Shown here piece after piece: positions 43,425 to 57,700 of a stretch of 64,000 nucleotides of DNA. The translations under genes and the position numbers were made by a program. The stretch's first letter is position 1. Each line of letters opens with the position of its first letter. Source of the stretch: Perna viridis (Eukaryota); contig CM074514.1 in the NCBI GenBank assembly GCA_037379345.1, positions 7,192,001 through 7,256,000 of the forward strand, read 5' to 3'. The notes beneath the pieces were generated by a model. The model was given only the letters and a program-made list of their open reading frames with translations. It was not told the DNA's origin and did no database searches.

Positions 43425-44638
43425 TCAGAAGACGACGCTCATCTTCTGGCCATCTAATTCGAATTGGAGGATTCGATCGGAGATGACCAGGGCGAAGGCT
43501 TGGGTATTGGCAGGGATCTGGATATCCACCGTCGACTCTTTCAACCGCTCGGACTGATGGCTCATGTCAATGACGAATAGGGGATAAAGATCGATGAAGT
43601 CAGAGGGATTGATACCGCCATTGCTCAGCAGACTTTCCATGCTTTAGAATTTTTTGCGGAATTCGGCAGCCTCCTTGTAGACCCTGGCGATGCCGGGGTC
43701 GTTGAGGTGGTCGATCTGCGGAGAGTCGGTAGCTGATGCAACGAAAGAGATACATGGCACCGTTATGGACTAGCGATACAAGATCGACCTCGCCATAAAC
43801 GGTACCATCATTCTTATGAAGTCGGCCTTCATCAAGAGATAGCTTTCGGCGGGATTGAGTCATATACAACGAGTACATGCTAACTGCATTAAAAATTCAT
43901 GTCATATATTAATATTAGGGGGGGGGGGGTGTTACAGATGCAGCCTGTCCTGTGGTATATGTTTGTTTGTTTGTTTGTTGAACTCCGAGCAGCAATATTT
44001 CAGCTATATTCAGACGATGAACATGAAATTGATGATAAAATGAACATGAAATGATGATGAAATGAAAAAGGGATGGGACACAAGGATAATGGGGTCGACA
44101 AATTTTGAGTGCCACTGGAAATAGGGAGGGGTGGGTAGGGTCGGGCAATTTAGCCTCCTGTGGCAGAAGCTATGGTTCCTACTCCGGGAGAATACCACAG
44201 TAGGGTTCTTTAACGTGCGAGGAATGTGGCATCTTTCCCAACACGGTGCACCACTATGGTTTGCGGTCAGGTTTTCCGTATTATAGCCTGACAACCCCAG
44301 CATGTAACACGCCAGGGGTACCCCATTTAACCACCTGGGGCACACATCCCAGTTGCTCTGTGGGCAAAGCGCCCTAACCCCGGCTAGGGTTCTGAGCACT
44401 ATTTATTCGCCTTTATTTACGACAAGCTTAGCGCTGCTGTAGGCCTATTCTTTTAACACCCGGACCTGCACGGGGCTGGATGGAGGAAGAGATCCTGGGT
44501 CTCGATATTGATGCGTATCACTGCGCCGGCATTATTTAGCTGCGCCCCGGCTTGAGGTTCGTATTCATGAACCTGATACTCCTGGAGACTTTCATCAAAA
44601 GTCAGTCCTTCGGTGATAGTGAGCATATCGGCCATCAT
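43425..44638 (-). pseudogene. Major capsid protein, Polinton B (deleted; interrupted by SINE)
   Basis: DESLQEYQVHEYEPQAGAQLN...IRINIETQDLFLHP|AESYL..EGRL.K.DGT and C-terminal LYPLFVID.SHQSERLK...QAFALVISDR. Confidence 0.88.
43960..44474 (-). mobile_element. SINE-like element, copy 2, inserted in the MCP gene
   Basis: Matches 11091-11592 plus ~20 extra internal bp; TSD ggcgggat (43848-43855) / ggctggat (44474-44481). Confidence 0.9.
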
Positions 44639-44649
44639 ATATTTATCTA

Positions 44650-44985
44650 TAGCGCTGGACGAAGTCGTGGATGGTGTGATGCCCCCGCCCGAGATAAGAT
44701 TATTGAGACGGGTCTGCTGCTGCGAAGTCCTCTTGGACTTGGTGGATGGTGCTGGAGGAGTCTTCTTGCGGGTCACTCGACGGACGTTGTGGTCCACCGC
44801 CTTGGTCGCACCTTTCTCAACGCCTTTCAGGGCTGCATTGGAGGCGGCGCTCACAGCTTTGGTACTCAACGTCTTGGCGGTGGAGGAGGTAAGCACCCGC
44901 CCCGCAAGATTGGTGATGGTATCGAAAGGCCTCGCCCGCCAACGGCATACCTTCGGCGATAACCGTGATTCACTACTAAAGGCAT
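44650..44985 (-). pseudogene. Amphipathic basic core protein, Polinton B
   Basis: MPLVVNHGYRRRYAVGGRGL[fs]DTITNLAGRVLTSSTAKTLSTKAVSAASNAALKG. Confidence 0.6.
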
Positions 44986-44996
44986 CGTAAGTTTAT

Positions 44997-45830
44997 TTAG
45001 AGGAGCTTTCGATGCAGCTTCTCGTACTCATGCCTGCTGATATGACCGGACTTCCTCATGACGTCGAGGATGGCCACAATTTCGTTGCGTACCCCATTAT
45101 TTCCAGCCGGGTAGGCGGCAGCGCAAAGATCGAGACGGTCCAGCAATTGGTGGAAGCACGTGGGGAGGAAGACGGTCGATCCTCCACTCCCATACTTATC
45201 CTGCTTATAGAGGTACGAGACGATCTCCTTCCATTTCCTGCTTTTGCTGGCCTTCGGGGTCTGTGAGAGTGAAGAGTTGCCTCGATACATGGCATGGGAT
45301 GCCCGTAGGATATCACCATACGTATGCAGATCCTCCACCTCGAATTCTCCGGGATGCTTTATGACAATGAGCTCCCATTGACCGGGGGTACCCTTATAGC
45401 GCTCGCCATCGACGAAGATATCGTCTCCATCGAAGGTGACTGGCAGACTTCAAATCATAATGGCACCGTCTTCCACTCACAATCCAAAGGTATGGTCGGC
45501 CTGGGGAGTCATACTGAGCTGAAGATAGTGGGTTGCTCGCGGACCGAGGTTGGTTCGCAGTGCTTGATCGATGGGTAGTGGGTCGTCGTCGTCCTCGGCG
45601 GTAGGCACCGGGACGGGTAGAGCGAGTGGGATATCTTCGATCATTTTGGTGATTTGGGAGGCGGTATCCTTTTGCGTCTCAACCACGAGCTTGAATATCT
45701 TGGAGAGGTCGCAGCTGAGTCCGATCCTATCTAGGCGGCGCTGCACATCGCTAGCCTGGATGCTGCGCTTGGTCTCCTGCAAGTCCCTATCAAGCGCTTG
45801 AGCAGATCGTACTCCCCCACCATCCTCACT
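44997..45830 (-). pseudogene. Conserved Polinton hypothetical protein (frameshifted)
   Basis: DLSKIFK.VVETQK...DHTFGL and GSG.TVFLP...LLDRLDL.....AGNNGVRNEIVAILD. Confidence 0.75.
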
Positions 45831-45839
45831 TTTACGCCC

Positions 45840-46177
45840 GACCAGAGGGTGGTGAATTTGGGTATGTATATAGTCTCCTTGTGGATACGGTGCAAAGCTT
45901 TGCCGCGGGCAATCTTAGCACCACACCGGTAGCATGCCTCAGGGAAAAGCTTCGAGTGCCTCTTACATTTATCACTGCCCGATATGGATGGGTACATGCA
46001 CTGATGGCCGCGGACGGTCTTAATGCAGCACTGGGGTCCTGGCGGTTGATTAGGTTTATGGCGGGAGTGGGAATTATAGGTTCTTCCTTCGAAATCCTGC
46101 TCATCGAGGCGCTGAGCGTACCTTTTGACACCGCATCTACTGCAGCCATACCCCAGGATTTCGTAGTGAATAAGCAC
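45840..46177 (-). pseudogene. Cys/His zinc-finger-like accessory ORF
   Basis: CSRC, CCIKTVRGHQC-x9-CKRH and CYRC clusters. Confidence 0.45.
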
Positions 46178-46189
46178 ACGCTCCTACTG

Positions 46190-46479
46190 GTGCTGGCTTG
46201 CTCGAAGAGGCAGATGAAATTACCATTCTCATGGATGGATTGCCGCGGCAGTTTGAAGTAATTTTGGCAGAGGTCCACGTTACTATGGCGACCACACACG
46301 TAGTAGTCTTCGCACTTGTTCTGCTCGCTTAGCATCAAGTCGTCGAAGACCATGAGGTTTTTGCGGGTGGGGTCGAGCTCTCGAGGATCGGGCACGTCAC
46401 TCATCTGTCCGAAGAAGAAAGGTTCGATACCGCTGGAAGGGTGGCTTCATCACATCCACTACGTCGACTAAAGAGTGGG
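46190..46479 (-). pseudogene. Packaging ATPase, Polinton B, C-terminal part (continues at 53380-53477)
   Basis: VPDPRELDPTRKNLMVFDDL (Walker B), GRHSNVD, QNYFKLPRQSI.EN. Confidence 0.9.
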
Positions 46480-47028
46480 TGTTTAGAAGACAATTATATT
46501 TTTTGACTTCAATTTTCATATGTTTTTAGATAACGTTTTTTTTTAATTAGTTTTATTTCTTTTCACTTTTAATTTTCATTGATAATTTTACATAGAAATC
46601 GAATTGTAACCTTGATCTAGTTAAGATAAGATAGTCGTTGTTTGTCTGGTCATCCAGTACTTGGAACTAATTAATTATTTTGATAGCGGTCAGCTGTTTA
46701 ACATATTTAATGATCTGTATCAGACAGACAATGAGAAGGTAAAAGTTCAAATTGGTAATTTGGGGAGTTACATTTAGGTTAATTGGGTTTATTTGTTCAG
46801 ATTCGGCACATAATTATGGTCAGTTAGAAGTCAGAGTTCGATCGGTAAACATTGTATTCAAATATGTGAATGTATATATTATGTAAATAAACGTAGGATT
46901 AGAAAGATCGTTTTTAATCGAAATCATGGTCGTAGACAAAAGTTATAGTGCTCGTCGTCTAGCTTCCCAATTACATAATTGAACAAACAATCGTTAAATC
47001 GCTTCCACTGCGCAATCACTCTGCTCCA
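46480..47028 (+). repeat. 5' LTR
   Basis: Direct repeat of 52831-53379; 5 mismatches seen by eye. Confidence 0.97.
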
Positions 47029-47033
47029 TTTTC

Positions 47034-47051
47034 TGGTAGCAGAGCGTGGTT
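47034..47051 (+). promoter_or_regulatory. Primer binding site for initiator tRNA-Met (TGGTAGCAGAGCGTGGTT)
   Basis: Complementary to the 3' end of metazoan tRNA-iMet (...CTCTGCTACCA). Confidence 0.9.
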
Positions 47052-47141
47052 AATATGGACAAAACGGACTTATCGAAATCGTATCGAAATTATAATTCAT
47101 AATCGGAATTAATATTGACATTTAGTGATCGTTAATCGAAA

Positions 47142-50100
47142 ATGAGCAATTGGGAGCTAGATCTTAGAAACGAAAAAATGGAAGAGACAATGATCGACTA
47201 ACAAAACGAAAAAATCGAGGATATTAAAAAGGACAAGGCAAAAGCTAAATCGGCCTTCACAAAATTGAGATATAACCTTCTCCAGTTAATCGATGAACCG
47301 GGCGAAATTCCAGATCGTGATATCATCAAAGAAATAAGACAAAAACTAACAGATGCAGAAGAAAATGCTATGAACATTATGCAATTATTATATGACGAAT
47401 ATAAGAAGAGAAACGAAATATTAAATGTACGGAAAACAGCTAATGAACTAGAACAAATGGAATCAGAATTTTCTGAAGCGATAAATGAATGTCAAAACTT
47501 TTTGATAAGTACAAAAGACAGTTCTAGTGTTCCATCGCGTGCATCGAACTATAGAGAAGAAATAGATAGACAAAATGTTCCAGTTACCGACGATAGTGGC
47601 GATAGACGTGAAATTAAAGATGACATTGGACAATTACCAGATCGGATTAATCGTGACATACCAGTTGAAGTTCAAAGTGACAATCGTATCGAAATCGGAA
47701 ATGACATGTGGAAGCAGTTGAAACGAATTGCGATTCCAATATTTTCGGGTGACAAACGAAGTTATGAAGCATGGAGGGCCGCCTTCATGTCGTGTGTGGA
47801 CAAAGCGCCGGCTACACCTGAATATAAACTTTTACAGTTAAGACAATACTTATCAGGAGAAGCATTAAAAGTGGTTGAAAATCTTGGATATTCGGAATCA
47901 GCGTACGTGGCTGCAAAAGACAGATTGGAGCGTAAATATGGAGGTAAACGACGACAGATCGCACGTTATATAGAAGAGTTAGAAACTTTCAAACCAATTC
48001 GAGTGGGAAATTCAAGAGACATTGACAAATTCGCAGATTTAATTGACGTAACTGTTGTGAATCTAAGGGATGCCGGTCGTAGTGAAGAACTTGGTAATGG
48101 ATCGTTATACAATAAATTACAGCAAAAGTTACCCGAGTCTATGCTTGCGCAGTACCATAGATGGGTATTCGAGAAACGGAGACCGGAATCAGTCGAATCG
48201 TTAAGGGAGTGGATAATTCAGGAAGCGGAATTCCAAACTATCGCGAGCGAAACTATCCGAGGATTAGACAACTTGTACAACAATGACGTCAGGCGTCCGA
48301 GACCGGGTACAAACAGAACTTTCGTCAGTAACACTGAAAACACAGATAGAAATGCTCGTAGACGACTATGTAAAGTATGTAATGAGCCGCATGGTGTGTG
48401 GAACTGCGAAATGTTCAAAAGAATGGATTTGCAAAAAAGGTGGAATGTTGCAAAGGAGCATAAACTTTGCTATCGTTGTTTAGGAGATAATCACCTCGGA
48501 CAAAGGTGTCCAAGAAGTAGAACGTGTGGAATCGATGGTTGTAGGGAGCTTCATAATAGAATGTTACATTATGAAAGGATTAACAATTTTAATCAACGCA
48601 GGCGAGTGGACAGTAACAATGTGCACAGACATTCAGAAATATTCAAAAGTGTTACAGAGCCGAACACTGAAGGGGAGCGTCAAAACAGAACGATGATCGC
48701 TAAAGACCGAGAAAAGGTAAATAATGTAATTTTAAGAACTGTACCAGTAATTGTCAGAAGTGGTAATCGAAAGTTGAAAGTGAACGCACTACTCGATGAT
48801 GCTAGTACAAAGACTTATATTAATTCGGATGTAGCCGCAGAGTTAGGTCTCCATGGACAGTTACAAACTATGACAGTAAATGTTTTAAATGATGAATGTG
48901 AATCGTTTGAAACAATGCCAGTTGAATTCGAAATTGAAAGTGTGAATGGCAGAACAAGAAATCGAATCGTAGCTTTCACGACAAACAAGGTGACCGGGAA
49001 TATGAAACCCATAGATTGGCGACAGCACAGTTCTAAGTGGGAACATTTGAAAGGCATACAGTTTCCGGACATAGGTTCGAAGCCTAAAGTTGATATGTTA
49101 ATTGGTTTGGATTATGCCGATTTACATTATTCGTACAAGGATATTCGTGGTAAACCAGGCGAGCCGATAGCAAGATTAACTCCCCTTGGATGGACATGTA
49201 TTGGGAATCCAGACACTGATGACAATCTGACACATTAAAATTACACATACTTCGTCGGAAGTATCAATGAATCAAATGAATACGATTTATTGTTAAAGAA
49301 ATTCTGGGACATTGGACACGTCAAACCTATCGATAAGAATGAGATGTTAAGTGCCGAAGATAAACAAGCTGTCAAAATCGTTGAACAATCAATGTGTTTC
49401 AAAGATGGTCGCTATGAAGTAGCCTTGCCTTGGAAGAGTGACCCTGCTAATTTACCGGACAATTATAATATGGCTTATCGCAGACTTGAGAATACTGAGA
49501 AGAGGTTAATTAAGGATGCGACTGTGAAGAACGATTACGTTAAAACTATTGAAAAGTATCTTGACAAAGGTTACGTCCGTAAAGTGCCAGCTGAAGAAGA
49601 GGTGCCGAAATCGGGAAAATGGTATTTACCGCACTTTCCAGTTGTAAGACCAGACAAGGAAACTACAAAGACAAGGATCGTATTCGACGCGTCTGCAAAG
49701 TGTGAAAATGCATCGTTAAATAGTGTCATTCATCAAGGTCTAAAATTACAGAGGGATTTATTTGGTGTTCTATTGCGATTTAGAAAGAATCCAGTTGCGT
49801 TAGTTTGTGATATTGCTGAAATGTATCTGAGGATAAATATAGCTCCGGTTGATAGGCCATTTCACAGGTTTTTGTGGCGCTCAATGGAATTAAATCGAGA
49901 ACCGGATGAATATGAATTCAATAGTGTTGTCTTCGGAGTTAATTCTTCGCCATTTCAGGCCCAATATGTTGTGCAGAAGCATGCTGAGTGCATGAAAGCG
50001 TCGCATCCGCGAGCTGCGGAAACAGTACTTCATTCGACTTACATGGATGATAGCATGGATTCAGTAATGAATGAACATGAGGGAATATTATTGTATAATC

Positions 50101-52655
50101 AATTGTCTGATTTATGGTGGAAAGCTGGAATGTACGCACGCAAATGGTTATCAAATTCAGAGGCAGTGTTAGATTTTATTCCGAAGGAAGATCGCGCGTC
50201 CGACGTTAATCTTGATGATGGTAGTTTGCCTACTGTGAAAACCTTGGGAATTATGTGGAAAGCGAATGTAGATTTATTCACATTCAAAGCGAATCCTCCA
50301 GGCGAGGACTTTGTGTACAGAAAGCGAAATTTCTTGAGAAAAGTGGCTATGTTATTCGATCCTCTTGGATTTATTTCGCCGTATATAGTGAGAGCTAAAA
50401 TGTTGCTTCAAGAAATGTGGTTAACTGGATATAATTGGGATAATTTACTAGATGAAAATTTAATATGTAAAGCAAAATCTTGGTTTAAAGAGCTAAATGA
50501 TTTGAATCAAATCAAAGTTCAAAGGTGTTTACAAGTTGTGGATCAAAATGAGGAAATTATTCATACTAATATTCATACATTCGTTGATTCGTCTGAAGAA
50601 GGATATGGTGCCGTTTCGTATATGAGAATCGAGTATATGAGTGGATTAATTTCGACAAGGATTATTGCATCGAAATCGAAAGTTGCACCAATTATTGCAG
50701 TTAGTATTCCGAGATTAGAGTTGATGGCTGCTGTTTTAGGATTAAAACTTGCACTTTCCATGGCGGAGCCGCTTAGAATACCGACGGAACAACTTGTGTT
50801 TTGGTCAGATTCTATGGATGTTTTATGGTGGATACGTGGTCGAAGCAGAGACTTCAAGCCGTTTATCGCGAACCGCATTGGAGAGATACACATGGCTTCG
50901 AGTCCAACACAGTGGCGCTACGTACCAACGAAAGAAAACCCCGCGGATCTGGTATCGAGAGGCAGGACTGTTATTCAGCTGAAATCGGACATTATATGGT
51001 GGGAAGGTCCAGACTTTCTATCAAAACAAGAATGTGACTGGCCTGAATGTCGTATTAACAAAGGACTATCGTGCGACAAAGAAGTTAAAAGCGCTAAATC
51101 GGGTGCTAAATTAGAGACTGTCAAGGACAGTGAAATATTTACAATGAAAATTGTGTTTGTATCGGAGAAGGATTGGTGTTTAAATCCAGAACATTATTCG
51201 AGCTGGTTGAGACTCATTCGTGTTCGTTCATGGGTTAACAGATTCGTTGAAAATTGTAGACTTACGCGTGACTTGCGTAGAAAAGGTGGACTTAGTGTAG
51301 ATGAAATTGAAGAGGCAGATACTCAAATCGTGCGCGACGCGCAGAGATGTGAATTTCTAGAGGATTATAATTCAATTATGAAAGAAAAACAGTTACCGTC
51401 GGGCAGTAAACTTCTAAGTTTAAAACCGAAAATCGATGAATATGGACTACTTAGATGTGACGGGCGTCTTGAACATGCAGATTTCTTGCCGTATGACACT
51501 AGGTATCCTATAATACTTCCGAGGAAAAATCGCGTGACAAGACTAATCGTGAAATACTACCACGACAAAGGTAGACATGTGTGCGGGACAAATCAAATAT
51601 TATCCATGATGTCATCTAAATATTGGATTATATCCGCCAGAGAGGAAATACGTGAGTGTGAAAATGAGTGTTATACGTGTCGTAAGAGAAAGGCGAAAAC
51701 AGCAGAGCAAGTAATGGCTCCTTTACCGGACATTCGTTTCAGAACGCCATTACATGCATTTGCGCGTATCGCAGTGGACTATGGTGGTCCGTTTATAACA
51801 GTGCAAGGTCGAGGAAAGAGACGTGAAAAGAGATATTTGTGTTTATTTACGTGCTTGGCATCGAGAGCCGTGCACTTGGAAGTTGCTTTTGGACTAGATA
51901 CTGACTCTTTTCTTAATGCGTTTTATAGAATGGCCAGTAGACGTGGAATGCCACAAGAAGTTGTTTCGGACAATGGAACAAACTTTATCGGTGCAAACAA
52001 GGAATTACAGGAACTAGTTTCACTATTAGATAAAGACAAAATATGTGACAATACGTCGAATAGAGGTGTGAAGTGGCATTTCAATCCTCCTCTCGCGCCT
52101 CACTTTGGAGGCGTACATGAAACGATGATAAAAGCCGCAAAGAACGCAATTTATTCCATATTAGGAAATGCGGACATTACTGACGAAGAGTTGTTAACTG
52201 CATTTATCGGTGCCGAAGCAGTCATTAATTCGCGTCCGCTTACATACCAGTCGGCAGATTCCAGAGATGACTTACCGTTAACGCCTAACCATTTCCTACA
52301 TGGACAAATCGGAGGAGCGTTTGCACCAGAGACCGTTGATACAACTGACTTTAACCCACGTAAACGATGGCGTCGAATCCAGGAATTAGTTAGACATTTC
52401 TGGCAAAGATGGATTAAAGAGTGGCTACCAGTACTAAATAGAAGACATAAATGGACTGAAACTGAAAAGGACTTGAAACCCAATGACATTGTGCTTGTAA
52501 TGAATCCCAATCTTCCACGAGGACATTGGCCGTTAGGCAGAATCATCGAGGTGTACTCAGGAAAGGACAATCATGTTCGAGTCGCCAAAATTAGACTTGG
52601 ACAAACTGTTTTAGTACGACCAATTACCAAACTGTGCCCGTTGGAAGTTAATTGA
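47142..52655 (+). pseudogene. BEL gag-pol polyprotein, single frame with two in-frame TAA stops (47199, 49236)
   Basis: Three Cys/His knuckles; protease ALLDDAS; RT YMDD; RNase H FVDSS/IPRLEL; integrase HHCC, VDYGGP, SDNGTNF, GGVHE; all segments in the same frame. Confidence 0.96.
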
Positions 52656-52817
52656 CTTAAATTTAACGTGCAATAACTATCAAGAAGCAGTGACTTTAAT
52701 TTTCTCCGTTTACATGGACTATCGCTATAGTTATGAATTATAGACTATCGAATATTTTCATTTATTTCGTTTTATTTTTTTATTTTTTTTGTTGTTGTTG
52801 ATTGGCTATGCTCAATC

Positions 52818-52830
52818 AAGAAGGGGAGAA
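52818..52830 (+). promoter_or_regulatory. Polypurine tract aagaaggggagaa
   Basis: Abuts the 3' LTR. Confidence 0.9.
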
Positions 52831-53379
52831 TGTTTAGAAGACAATTATATTTTTTGACTTCAATTTTCATATGTTTTTAGATAACGTTTTTTTTTAATTA
52901 GTTTTATTTCTTTTCACTTTTAATTTTCATTGATAATTTTACATAGAAATCGAATTGTAACCTTAATCTAGTTAATATAAGATAGTCGTTGTTTGTCTGG
53001 TCATCCAGTACTTGGAACTAATTAATTATTTTGATAGCGGTCAGCTGTTTAACATATTTAATGATCTGTATCAGACAGACAATGAGAATGTAAAAGTTCA
53101 AATTGGTAATTTGGGGAGTTACATTTAGGTTAATTGGGTTTATTTGTTCAGATTCGGCACATAATTATGGTCAGTTAGAAGTCAGAGTTCGATCGGTAAA
53201 CATTATATTCAAATATGTGAATGTATATATTATGTAAATAAACGTAGGATTAGAAAGATCGTTTTTAATCGAAATCATGGTCGTAGACAAAAGTTATAGT
53301 GGTCGTCGTCTAGCTTCCCAATTACATAATTGAACAAACAATCGTTAAATCGCTTCCACTGCGCAATCACTCTGCTCCA
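52831..53379 (+). repeat. 3' LTR
   Basis: Direct repeat of the 5' LTR. Confidence 0.97.
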
Positions 53380-53477
53380 GTGGGGATAGCGATCCTTGAT
53401 GGAGAGAAGGTCGCGGATATCGTCTTTCGAAAACCCTTTCTCCAACGCCCGCCGCAGTAGCTGGTAGATGGGCTGCT

Positions 53478-54494
53478 GACGGTACCCCGAAATCTTGGTC
53501 GAGACCTGTCAATCGAGTCGATGAGGCTGCCTATCACCACGATCTTTGCTATGCCAAGCACAGGGATACGGCCGATCTGCGATAAGACGATGCTAGCCTC
53601 CCTCGATACCATCCCCAATCCCACTGCACGTGAGCGCTTTGAGCGTGGTATCAGACCCATCATCGGTACCAAAGCACGATTTGGGCTGGGTGGGGGGAAA
53701 AAAGTACGATGGTCGGATGAGCTAGCCGAAGAGCTGCATAAGCCAGTCCGACGTAAATTTCAGAAACGTCGCGTGGTGGTAGGTGGGGTGGATTACACCT
53801 GGGCTGCCGATCCCTTAGATATGAGCTCCTTCTCCCGCGATAACCGAGGCTTCAAGTATCTCTTGAATTTTATAATCGTGAGGTGAAGGATCTGCTCCTG
53901 AAGCACGATGTCGACCTCTATTCAACCGAGAACGAAGAGAAGTCAAGCCTGGTAGAGCGCTGGAATCGCACCATGAAGGAGAGGATGTTCAAGTACTTCT
54001 CGGCCAATTTCACGCGCACCTATCATCCCGTCCTGAACGATCTCGTCCGCCAGTATAATACCACCAAGCATCGATCTATCAAGATGACCCCTAAGGCTGC
54101 CAGCCAGAAAGAGCATGAGACCAAGGTCTTCTGGAATCTTTACTGAGACCTCCCACCCATGCAGCCGCAGCGATTCGACGTGGGCGATAAGGTCCGGATC
54201 ACCAGGAAGAAGGACACCTTCGAGAAGGGATATACTCCGCGCTGAACTGAGGTCTTTACCATCGCCCAGGCCTTGAGTACTCAACCGCCCACCTATCGTC
54301 TCAAAGACTATGAGGATGAGGAATTCCTGGGATCCTTTTAGGAGCCCGAGCTCCAGCGCACTGACCAGGATATCTATCGCATCGAGAAAGTCTTGCGCCG
54401 GCGGACCCGGGGAGGGGTGAAGGAAATCTACGTCAAGTGGAGAGGCTACCCCAAAGAATTCAACTCCTGGATCAAGGAGTCAGACTTGCAATGA
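53478..54494 (+). pseudogene. PLA2 domain joined to integrase and chromodomain, Polinton B
   Basis: PVNRVDEAAYHHDLCY (parvovirus-type PLA2); KARFGLG; ELAEELHKP; TWAAD; VERWNRTMK; IYRIEKVL...YVKWRGYP..FNSWI. Confidence 0.92.
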
Positions 54495-54499
54495 TCCCA

Positions 54500-55001
54500 A
54501 GCAAGCTTTCAGGTCTCGATCAAGGGAGACCGGAAAGTTTTTGACTATGTATGCTTCAGTTCGACAAAGACCCTTAATGCGTCCAGATCCGCCAGCAGGC
54601 GATCGTAAAGGGCTTTGGTGATAGGTTCGTTGTCGATCTGGGGAAGTGGGAGATTTAGCAGGTGATACTTTTGCATGTCTAGGTCCGCATTCACCTTGTC
54701 ACCGATGGTCGAGACGCAATCTGACTTATCGACTCATCTTCTACGGCGATTAGCTTTTCGGTAAGGTCTTTGATCGATACGTCATACTCCCTCTGCATCC
54801 GCTTGATGGTCATCTGGATCTGCTTACATTCCGAATCTAGCTCGTCGATGTCTTTCATACCATCTTTCAACTGTTGGTTGACCCATCGCTTTGTCACGGC
54901 GTCTGAGCTGTCTCGGGGCAAACCGAGGCTGGTGATCCGATTATCGTTCATATCGTGATCCTGAAGCATTCGCCAGATTCGTGAGATCCAAACTTATGCA
55001 T
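54500..55001 (-). pseudogene. Fibre/spike-like protein remnant with coiled coil
   Basis: Two copies of the DM...I..L..P....D/EA.TK motif: DMNDNRITSLGLPRDSSDAVTK and DMQKYHLLNLPLPQIDNEPITK. Confidence 0.55.
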
Positions 55002-55392
55002 TTATCTATATCCGAAGATCACCTCCTCGAGCTTCTGACCTTCCGATAGGAGCTTCAGTACGTGCAAGCAAAAGTGCCCGCAGACTACGTCTCCTCGCCG
55101 CTGCAGCTCATCGGTATTATATCGAATCTCCGGCCGCAGATAGTTGACCATCTCATCGGGTGGGAGTAGGCCGTAAGGGTCGAAGTAGACTGAGTCCTCC
55201 ACGCTTATGCCAGCACGTCCAGTGCGTGGCGGGGCCATCGCGTACTCGGTGGGTTGGGGTCGGGTGGTAGAGCATCGCGCATGAATACTCCTCTGAATCG
55301 AGGGATGCGTAGGGCCGTGGCAGCTTCCTCGAGCTCTACGTTGGAGAAGGGCTTGTGGTGAGGAGGATGCCGTGCACGCGTATGCTGCTCAT
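55002..55392 (-). pseudogene. Adenain-like protease, Polinton B
   Basis: PFSNVEL...FRGVFMRD.LP, THWTCW, YFDPYG, LQ....VCGHFCL. Confidence 0.9.
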
Positions 55393-55470
55393 TTATCTAG
55401 GGAGGGATGGGCATCTACACCCGTCAGAGTCTACTAAATGTAGGAGAAGAGAGATGGGCATCCGCACCAG

Positions 55471-57700
55471 TCAGAGTCTGTCAAGTGGAGGGAGGGGGGG
55501 AGGGGTGAGGGCGACCACCTCAGCCGTGGGTGATTCGGTAGTGTCCGTGGCGAGGGTGCTGATGCCGTCTGGGTGGATGTGGCGCTTATCGTACTTGGCC
55601 GAGAGATCTACATGTATCTTGTTGTTCTGCTCGGCGTAGATCTGGTGGGATAACATTCATCGGTCGGTGGATCTCCTGCTGGGTGTCGAGGCATCGTTTG
55701 TAGTCCTCGAAGGCGATGCTGCGCTTGATGACGCTCTTGGTGACGCCCTTCGCCTTCTTGTTGGATTTACCGTCGTCCATCTTGAAGGCGTATAGCTTCA
55801 CTCGGAGCCCCATGAATTCGGTCATGGCCTTGCCGCCGCATTCGTCCTTGAACATTCCGCTGATCTTCTTATTCACGCCGGGGGATGCTCCGTCGGGTAG
55901 TTGGATGTATCGAATTTTTCCTGAACGTGTGGCGCGATATCATGTCAGTGTTGGTGAAAAGCAGGCGGGCTTTGTTGCCGTACGTCTTCTTCACGAAATC
56001 GTAGTGGAAGTCGTACTTCAGGAGCTTCGAAATATCCAAGATGCACGATCCAGGTAGACGGGCTTATCGAACTTCAGCTTGGTCTTCTTCATATGGACGG
56101 CTGCCAGATTCTCGGTGAAGATTACTTGAGATTTCGATAGTGGAGAGCATATTTTTCACGCTTGTCTAGATGAGGTACGAGCTTGCGCACCTTGCTGATC
56201 TCCACGTTCTCGGGCGCGAGAGGGTAGTCATTATGGGCGTCGTGAAGATCCTGCGGGTATTGAGGACGCATTCTACCATGGCGCCATGTTCGTGGTCGTC
56301 GGGATACTTAAGAATCTCGTCGACCTCCTCCGGCTCCATCCACTCGAAATCTCCCGCGGGAAGGGGCTGCGCCATCGCCCAACCGTAGAGGTTGTTGGCA
56401 TAGAGATAGGTGAGATATTTGGTGGGCTGGGAGCTAACGTAGTCGGCCATGTAGGGATTGGTAGCCTTGCCGTGGCCTCCTCTGGTTGCCCTCTCGAACA
56501 CCATCAGCATATCCGGATCGGAGAGCAGCTCCAATCTGACCCCGGTGGTTTTGAGGGCGGCGTCGTAGGCTAGCCCGGGGAACGTGAAGATGTGGGCAGG
56601 ATCGAGCATTCCCAAACCGCCTTGAATTTATCGGGCGTAAGATTCTTGGCTAGATTTTCCAGCGAGTTGGGCACGAATTTGCACAAGTGCTTCGGAAGCT
56701 GGAAGCCGCGATATTTCCCGGTGACATGGTAGTGATCCCGTACCTTATCCCATCCCAATTTATCCCCGCAAATGTAGCAGTTCGAGCTTGATGTGAAGCT
56801 ATGCTTATCCTCGTCGCTCATCACCATCGGCTTCTTCTCCTAGCATATCTTGCTGATCGTCTGCACTTCCTTCTCCATGTATTGGACGAACTGTTTTGGC
56901 CGCATCCTCCCCGCAGTAGACGACCGATTCCTTGTATTCGCCGTGGGCATACATCACGCGATAGCAGAAACCTGATGTCCGTTGCCGTCGGTAGGCCTTC
57001 GTGTAGGACTTGGTTGGGTCGGGCTGGCAAGTGTCGAGCTTCTCCGTGAAGCATTCAAAGTCCGCATAGATTACGAATGGGACTCTCATCAGCTTCTTGT
57101 GATTATGGAAGGTTATGATGGATCCTTCTTCCGGCATCTCGATCCTGATGGCATCCTTCTGACTGCAATATTCCATATGCTCGTCCAGGATATCCTGCCT
57201 GGAAAAGTGGCGCAAGCATCTACGGCAGATGCCTCTCGAATTTATCGATTGCTTTGAGGGAGACCGGGATTGATGCCTTTGAATTTTAGCTCGTCCTCCC
57301 ATTTCGCGTATTGGTTCGCCCGGTTGGTATTCTTCTGATCCACCTCCTCGTGATGCAGGGCTGAGAGAATCGCCCACTGGAAGCTGTGATCGTCCTCTTT
57401 TTCCACATTGATGATCGTCTTCTTTTTCGCAAGTGCTGATGGGGTTGGTATGAAGGAACCCCCCTTGAGTGGCTTGAATTGGTCGAGATGGATTTCTAGC
57501 TTATCGATGCTGCTTTAAGTCCATCCACTCCCTTCGTCCATATAACTAGCCATACTTTCCCTGATCTTCCCCATCATGGAGACGATCTCCAATTCGAGGT
57601 TGTCAGATTCCACGATCATTGTCGTTCGTGATCTGAAGGGAGTGGTGATGTAGATATTCTCTCCGGTCACGAAGGAGCACTAAATGCACCTTTAAACCCT
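55471..57700 (-). pseudogene. Protein-primed PolB, Polinton B (with EndoVII-like insert)
   Basis: EGSGW, FQWAILSALH, FVIYADFE (exoI), CYIC...VRDH.H.TGKYRG, YLYANNLYGWAM (motif A), LFTNTD, GMFKDE, DKR...DGI.TLA. Confidence 0.92.

Follow-up and report, generated by a model that had tools for sequence, protein, structure and literature searches.

Complementarity of a BEL/Pao U5 end to the 5' half of its tRNA-iMet primer in Perna viridis: a candidate two-armed primer contact

Introduction

Pairing between a primer tRNA and the genomic RNA outside the primer binding site (PBS) has been described for a number of retroviruses and retrotransposons. The 5' nucleotides of tRNA-Lys3 pair with a U5 stem-loop in FIV (excerpt of PMC3230847), Ty3 has U3 sequences that pair with the D arm of tRNA-iMet (excerpts of PMC5371799 and PMC11381356), and the Ty1 boxes lie outside a 10-nt PBS, with a proposed extra box (2.1) that was seen in vitro and was unconfirmed in particles (excerpt of PMC3592414). 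A second tRNA site was described for Gypsy (excerpt of PMC1635307). The profile of the Belpaoviridae names tRNA-Arg or tRNA-Gly as primers, says that replication is poorly understood and is silent on any extra primer contact (PMC8742986). We found no report of an extended primer contact in BEL/Pao in the literature covered (mostly open, main texts only), in line with the first-pass annotation of this DNA, which knew of none; PMC3118150 held no occurrence of tRNA or PBS.

We examined a BEL/Pao element within a 64,000-nt stretch of a Perna viridis contig (hereafter the window), where the end of the U5 region is antisense to the 5' half of the tRNA that also matches the PBS.

Results

The element spans 46480-53379 (6900 bp, plus strand) and, judged from its sequence, is a BEL/Pao LTR retrotransposon (Belpaoviridae), as the first-pass annotation had proposed and as the domain search supports: DUF1759, Peptidase_A17 and DUF5641 scored above the curated cut-off, RVT_1 and rve under it, and the integrase comes last. 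It is flanked on both sides by a 5-bp target-site duplication, GTGGG (46475..46479 and 53380..53384). The 5' LTR (46480..47028, 549 bp, TG...CA) matches the 3' LTR (52831..53379) at 544/549 positions, the pair differing at 5. The Gag-protease part of the polyprotein (47202..49238, with DUF1759) is closed in the present copy by a single in-frame stop that interrupts the reading frame; the part with RT, Peptidase_A17, integrase and DUF5641 follows (49239..52655), and a polypurine tract (52818..52830) precedes the 3' LTR, all on the plus strand. Against the ranges for the Belpaoviridae (LTR 0.2-1.2 kb, length 4.2-10 kb, polypurine tract, target-site duplication), the 549-bp LTRs, the 6900-bp length, the tract and the 5-bp duplication all conform. 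The 18-nt PBS complements tRNA-iMet and not the tRNA-Arg or tRNA-Gly of the ICTV profile; the iMet primer is a trait of the clade and no reason to exclude the element from the Belpaoviridae.

The family is young and multi-copy: a search of the host genome with the LTR gave 40 scored matches at 88-100% identity among 54 candidates. The flanks were joined without the element (window 46434-53379) in contigs of 3/4 public sequencing runs, which suggests that the insertion is polymorphic or that the flanking repeat has further copies, and agrees with an element inserted recently and still polymorphic. Broken ORFs surround it (window 44000-46474 and 53385-56000); by their motifs these look similar to a Polinton/Maverick-type element (integrase, packaging ATPase, protease, capsid, DNA polymerase B), a likeness that Pfam and PHROGs, with no meaningful match to the ORF fragments, did not confirm.

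The first-pass annotation had placed the feature at 47000..47051, with a copy at 53351-53376, and had read the U5 end as antisense to nt 1-23 of tRNA-iMet with a 3-nt interruption; positions and reading both proved correct. The D-arm box CGCTTCCACTGCGC (47000..47013, plus strand) is 14 nt antisense to nt 10-23 of the host tRNA-iMet and forms the predicted toehold. It is followed by a 3-nt insert, AAT (47014..47016, plus strand), which lies opposite the tRNA nt 9/10 step and has the PBS 3' end as its predicted partner in the hairpin state, and then by the acceptor-strand box CACTCTGCT (47017..47025, plus strand), 9 nt antisense to tRNA nt 1-9, the last 7 nt of which double as an inverted repeat of the PBS (the switch strand). 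The LTR-terminal CCA (47026..47028, plus strand) ends the 5' LTR and, with the TTTTC spacer between LTR and PBS (47029..47033, plus strand), makes up the 8-nt gap (47026..47033, plus strand) that separates the two tRNA-complementary arms and is the predicted tip of the hairpin in free RNA. The PBS (47034..47051, plus strand) is complementary at 18/18 positions to the host tRNA-iMet 3' end. The box in the 3' LTR is identical (53351-53376). AATAAA at 46886..46891 (plus strand) is the likely polyadenylation signal; the box lies about 110 nt further downstream and is assigned to U5 on this basis, the R/U5 border position being itself inferred. Nucleotides of the tRNA are numbered sequentially along the gene, apart from A58, given in standard numbering.

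The gapped box pattern taken from the window had 47 matches in the host genome, 28 with the 3-nt insert and 19 ungapped. The 19 ungapped matches are tRNA-Met(CAT) genes, 18 of them in one tandem array and 1 separate; ARAGORN called tRNA-Met(CAT) at the match in 3/3 loci tested out of the 19, and 13 of the 19 were compared and are identical across the gene. These genes bear out the 5' sequence of tRNA-iMet that the first-pass annotation had given, and the PBS is the exact complement of their last 18 nt once CCA is added. Two complementary arms, an exact PBS and the host tRNA are thus observed directly. The iMet genes share their array with two Lys(TTT) genes per 1091-bp unit (L018-L030, L372, L381-L387), and further tRNA tandem arrays of the host carry Thr(CGT) with Gly(CCC) (~682 bp), Leu(TAG) (~1087 bp) and Leu(AAG) (~700 bp).

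Outside the PBS, too, the element matches its own primer in antisense more extensively than chance would give. A 14-mer antisense run is expected at ~7e-6 in 100 nt of the same composition and arose in 0/400 shuffles; 9600 shuffles gave no run longer than 12 nt, a length reached once. The 13-nt core had 57 matches in 723 Mb, which by position and context are 35 LTRs of the family, 19 tRNA genes, 2 variant tRNA copies and 1 unrelated place, and the reversed control had 0. The 700 nt upstream and 300 nt downstream contained no other antisense run to tRNA-iMet of at least 8 nt. Since the two strands of the acceptor stem pair with each other, CTCTGCT is a complement of the tRNA 5' strand as well as of the PBS; these 7 nt are therefore not independent evidence of a tRNA contact, and the 14-nt D-arm box is. 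This ambiguity of the acceptor part is what could be said for a chance resemblance, an explanation that was rejected on the genome count with its reversed control and on the shuffle test, that a second family repeating the box (see below) also speaks against, and that we regard as negligible. A Pol III A-box on the antisense strand was likewise considered and rejected, as the insert breaks the first positions of that box (judged by eye).

The box is also present in solo LTRs of the family, and its match to nt 1-23 has the span of a 5' tRNA fragment, so it could be a site where 5' tRNA-iMet fragments regulate the element RNA or read-through LTR transcripts. The element would gain little from keeping a silencing site, and the 3-nt insert breaks the match; we consider this role very improbable.

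The D-arm run ends at nt 10, one base before G9, and the PBS ends one base before A58. Human tRNA-iMet carries m1G9, t6A37 and m1A58, and m1G9 interferes with pairing and reverse transcription (excerpt of PMC7293042); we assume by analogy that the host tRNA-iMet is modified in the same way. The stops beside modified bases would then point to mature tRNA as the source or the partner of the box, and the pattern does not separate function from accident.

Folding predicted the PBS-masking CTCTGCT/AGCAGAG hairpin that had been proposed from the letters. The PBS was predicted to be paired with U5 at nt 1-3 and 5-10 (probability 0.87-1.0) and with the insert region at nt 14-18 (0.39-0.5); the 3-nt "bulge" therefore has a predicted partner in free RNA. 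The 47016 T/C variant (C in 11/28 insertions) is predicted to keep this pair with the PBS, turning G-U into G-C, and the full 15-bp hairpin is then the best predicted structure. Mean unpaired probability was 0.54 for the D-arm box and 0.15 for the PBS, which is mostly paired. The predicted cost of opening the PBS (13.5 kcal/mol) was the highest of 24 representatives, and net annealing to the PBS only was about neutral here (+1.6 kcal/mol) vs -6.1 kcal/mol in a copy of the sister family with the same PBS, whereas the two-armed complex was at about -36 kcal/mol before the cost of loop closure, with G9 left unpaired. These energies were computed for unmodified RNA and ignore tertiary structure and nucleocapsid. 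If the hairpin masks the PBS and two-armed binding is favored, as predicted, the tRNA therefore likely needs both of its ends gripping before copying. The hairpin was modestly better than shuffles (z -1.9 to -2.5 in short windows, -0.55 at 141 nt), 10/100 upstream shuffles masked an equal number of PBS bases, and the C/G-rich U5 of both D-arm-box families raises the PBS opening cost by itself. The first-pass annotation had offered two-armed pairing or the hairpin; both receive support from the predictions, and the "either/or" does not stand, as a single switch with two states is the better description.

The 5' arm alone was predicted to bind more strongly than the PBS (-40 to -43.5 vs -34.5 kcal/mol), which would also suit a function at another step: one tRNA could bridge two genomic RNAs or two tRNAs could sit on one RNA, either way aiding packaging or dimer formation, or the nascent minus strand, as a repeat of the tRNA 5' sequence, could fold back onto the primer and promote strand transfer. 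Dimers bridged by tRNA were proposed for Ty3, and work in vivo did not support a PBS role in Ty3 dimerization or packaging (both from excerpts of PMC11381356). Initiation explains the adjacency of box and PBS, as well as the hairpin, more simply, and we hold a function at another step to be improbable.

Relatives were sought by a metagenome scan, from which the best 80 of 224 confirmed stretches were retained, representing 69 loci. An iMet-type PBS lay near the Gag match in 48/69 of these best-80 loci, the remaining 21/69 had no other recognizable primer site, and within this set every BEL relative with a recognizable PBS was iMet-primed. The wide BEL/Pao clade (L191-L258) carries the 18-nt tRNA-iMet PBS in three sequence variants. 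When all 69 loci (best 80 of 224) were scanned for a D-arm box with at most 2 mismatches, only L251 and L252, which are one family, contained it. At least 100 nt upstream of the PBS was available for 22 representatives (L208 and L212 forming one cluster; loci excluded for shorter upstream sequence include L192, L215, L249, L255 and L256), and in 21/22 of these, again from the best 80 of 224, antisense runs in the 100 nt before the PBS were only 4-7 nt long; the metagenome loci may share few hosts and be non-independent, and the Perna viridis tRNA was applied to all. The sister family, in the same genome as the window family, has an identical PBS and has neither the D-arm box nor the hairpin. 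The box is therefore no clade-wide requirement of iMet priming. Lack of the match in related Met-primed families was part of what the first-pass annotation had said would count against the contact, and that part largely holds for the 21/22 representatives and the sister family. Whole-U5 duplex energies against the tRNA were also tried; they were noisy, flagging L207 and L230 at p 0.02-0.03 without a long run, and exact runs were used instead.

In the L251/L252 family a box of 15 nt is antisense to nt 10-24 (L251:401-415, L252:206-220; chance ~9e-6 for L251) and in L251 lies 66 nt before the PBS; the D-arm runs of this family and of the window family both end at nt 10. The Gag-PR of L251/L252 is 44-47% identical to that of the window family, and outside the box and the surroundings of the PBS the LTRs of the two do not align. 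The PBS opening cost of L251 was the second-highest among the 24 representatives. A 7-of-8 copy of the tRNA 3' end follows the box, then a short stem-loop, then the PBS. A PBS-blocking strand appeared in one fold of L251 and was rejected, since 24/60 shuffles were as good and it was absent in a longer window. The window and L251 families are not sisters in the best trees; a single clade for the two was not rejected (AU p 0.058 with a degraded sister copy, 0.47 without it). Long retention of the box or two gains of it would each favor use, and repeated neutral capture is possible too.

In the sister family, which is older, U5 contains a 10-nt run, about 27 nt before the PBS, that is antisense to tRNA nt 37-46 (L184:1040-1049; also in L176 and the related copies G000 C15, C6 and C3). 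This run is directed at the 3' side of the anticodon stem and the variable loop and ends one base before the t6A37 position. Chance would give such a run at 7e-4 for one family and at ~0.02 over 24. Sixteen sister copies were examined by eye, with queries that included the box; 11 reach the LTR end, and 8/11 match 9 or 10 of the 10 positions. That the box of the sister family targets a different part of the tRNA is a further point for a function at another step. The LTR ends in AACA in the sister family and in 17/24 representatives, and in TCCA in both D-arm-box families; the window family LTR starts with TGTT yet ends with TCCA, and its end therefore looks derived or replaced.

Among 20 stretches around BEL Gag matches, a TGG-type PBS was missing from most of those with an LTR pair, and one belonged to the iMet-primed sister family. 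Several young BEL families of the host genome with near-identical LTRs (L091, L092, L105, L106, L095-L098, L099, L100) have no TGG-type tRNA PBS after the 5' LTR, and self-priming is possible for BEL families of this sort. Twenty candidates were considered as further iMet PBS sites; the first four proved to be copies of the window family, none of the rest had an 18-nt match, and 14 looked by eye like chance 11-12-mers. L223-L225 carry two more copies of the PBS 3' half immediately downstream of the PBS, at +18 and +31. Neither two box-plus-PBS patterns nor the protein queries matched any viral contig; in prokaryote genome contigs 3 loci matched, and neither of the 2 checked had an iMet-like PBS. 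Gypsy elements served as controls, with an LTR pair in 11/20 stretches and a host tRNA for two families only. No box was found in the Leu-primed family (longest antisense run 6 nt, with ~250/1000 shuffles as long) or in the Thr-primed family (longest run 5 nt, for a tRNA that matches the PBS at 16/18).

Selection was assessed in 39 LTRs from 28 insertions, after 3/42 LTRs, truncated or partly fetched, were dropped. Across the 23 pairing positions, shared pair-breaking variants numbered 1 observed vs 1.9 expected (P 0.43, in a test of little power) and singletons 11 observed vs 7.8 expected; selection on the box was not detectable in this sample with so weak a test. The D-box variant common to 4 insertions is a C>T change that leaves a G-U pair. 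One tandem insertion (L266, L267, L273; G000 C11) consists of two elements with a common middle LTR, and an identical pair-breaking change, at 47022 in the acceptor-strand box, is present in 3/3 of its LTRs. The change therefore passed through replication, and perfect pairing is not essential.

Lack of a selection signal among copies is what would be expected if the box were a tolerated relic, a piece of mature tRNA that an RT template switch put in the U5 end of an element that founded the family by luck, with the pairing unused. The box has its end precisely at tRNA nt 1 and its break at G9, a pattern expected if the copying of a modified tRNA had stalled; the LTR end looks replaced (TCCA vs AACA in the 17/24 representatives); the box is absent from most relatives, and recurrent capture could explain L251 too. 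Set against this, a neutral insert by which the PBS is buried ~7 kcal/mol deeper than in the sister family would be expected to carry a cost if the tRNA made no use of it, the copies of this young multi-copy family, 88-100% identical, retain the box, and a 23-nt perfect complement beside a bound primer is unlikely to remain unpaired. We judge the relic, the main rival to the reading preferred below, unlikely, with a real share of the weight.

Discussion

The reading we prefer, at a probability of roughly 0.55, is that the window family makes a family-specific two-armed contact with its primer that opens a hairpin-masked PBS. The order of events would be as follows. The D arm of tRNA-iMet would dock first on the exposed 14-nt box; the acceptor strand would then be swapped into the hairpin, by strand exchange between two near-identical helices (the U5/PBS stem and the tRNA acceptor stem), and the tRNA 3' end would settle on the freed PBS. 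The resulting complex would resemble a padlock, in which 8 template nt separate the tRNA 3' end, at 47034, from the 5' end opposite it, at 47025, and in which the anticodon arm is free to remain folded. RT would copy the spacer and the LTR-terminal CCA, meet the primer's own 5' end and pause at about +8. As to origin, RT may have copied mature tRNA into the U5 end, the insert being retained later because the hairpin had made the element dependent on it.

A fuller version, which we put forward tentatively and would ourselves bet against, is a toehold-gated PBS: a hairpin that mimics the acceptor stem and is opened only by intact tRNA-iMet, through D-arm docking and four-way strand exchange, ending in the padlock with its +8 pause. 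Related families would reach for different parts of the tRNA, with boxes ending one base before m1G9, t6A37 and m1A58 (as placed in human tRNA), as if RT repeatedly copied pieces of the primer into U5 and some were selected. If this is true, the toehold lock would give the element a way to verify the whole primer and would also exclude 3' tRNA fragments from the PBS, and RT copying of tRNA would be a route by which primer contacts arise. The relatives with the same PBS and either no box or another box are natural controls.

The candidate contact is long, exact and adjacent to the PBS, in contrast to the short and disputed contacts in a few yeast elements and retroviruses. Two arrangements of tRNA priming do not apply. 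Half-tRNA priming, as in copia and Ty5 (a PBS directly after the LTR, complementary to a 3' end within the anticodon region of the tRNA), is excluded because the PBS matches the true 3' end and the 5' box lies inside the LTR; and the Ty3-type bipartite PBS (a short 5' PBS with T-arm and D-arm boxes in U3) differs from the full 18-nt PBS found here.

Like the Belpaoviridae in general, the element has LTRs, an 18-nt PBS, a polypurine tract and one gag-pol frame (PR-RT-RH-IN) within 6.9 kb; unlike the family profile, the clade found here uses tRNA-iMet (PMC8742986). The HIV-1 and HIV-2 contacts (A-rich loop, PAS) and the MLV U5-PBS contact also place U5 against the primer outside the PBS, and in MLV the complementary residues are concealed until nucleocapsid exposes them, a likeness to the masking predicted here; the parts of the primer engaged in those viruses are the anticodon loop and the T arm and not nt 1-23 (excerpts of PMC3185550 and PMC11181671). 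Ty1, with boxes 0, 1 and 2.1, likewise has extra tRNA-iMet complementarity near the PBS, but its PBS is 10 nt long and its boxes lie downstream of it (excerpt of PMC3592414). Ty3 shares the tRNA-iMet primer, a D arm complementary to RNA outside the PBS and a 5' PBS that tends to be paired within the RNA, and differs in having an 8-nt 5' PBS and a 12+11 nt contact in U3 some 4800 nt distant (excerpts of PMC5371799 and PMC11381356); in the window family the PBS has all 18 nt, and the second arm, which takes in the acceptor 5' strand, is in U5, 8 nt upstream. As in FIV, the 5' end of the primer is complementary to U5 (excerpt of PMC3230847), but FIV is a retrovirus with another tRNA, and in the window family the complementarity extends over 23 nt, takes in the whole D arm and uses a U5 strand that is also an inverted repeat of the PBS.
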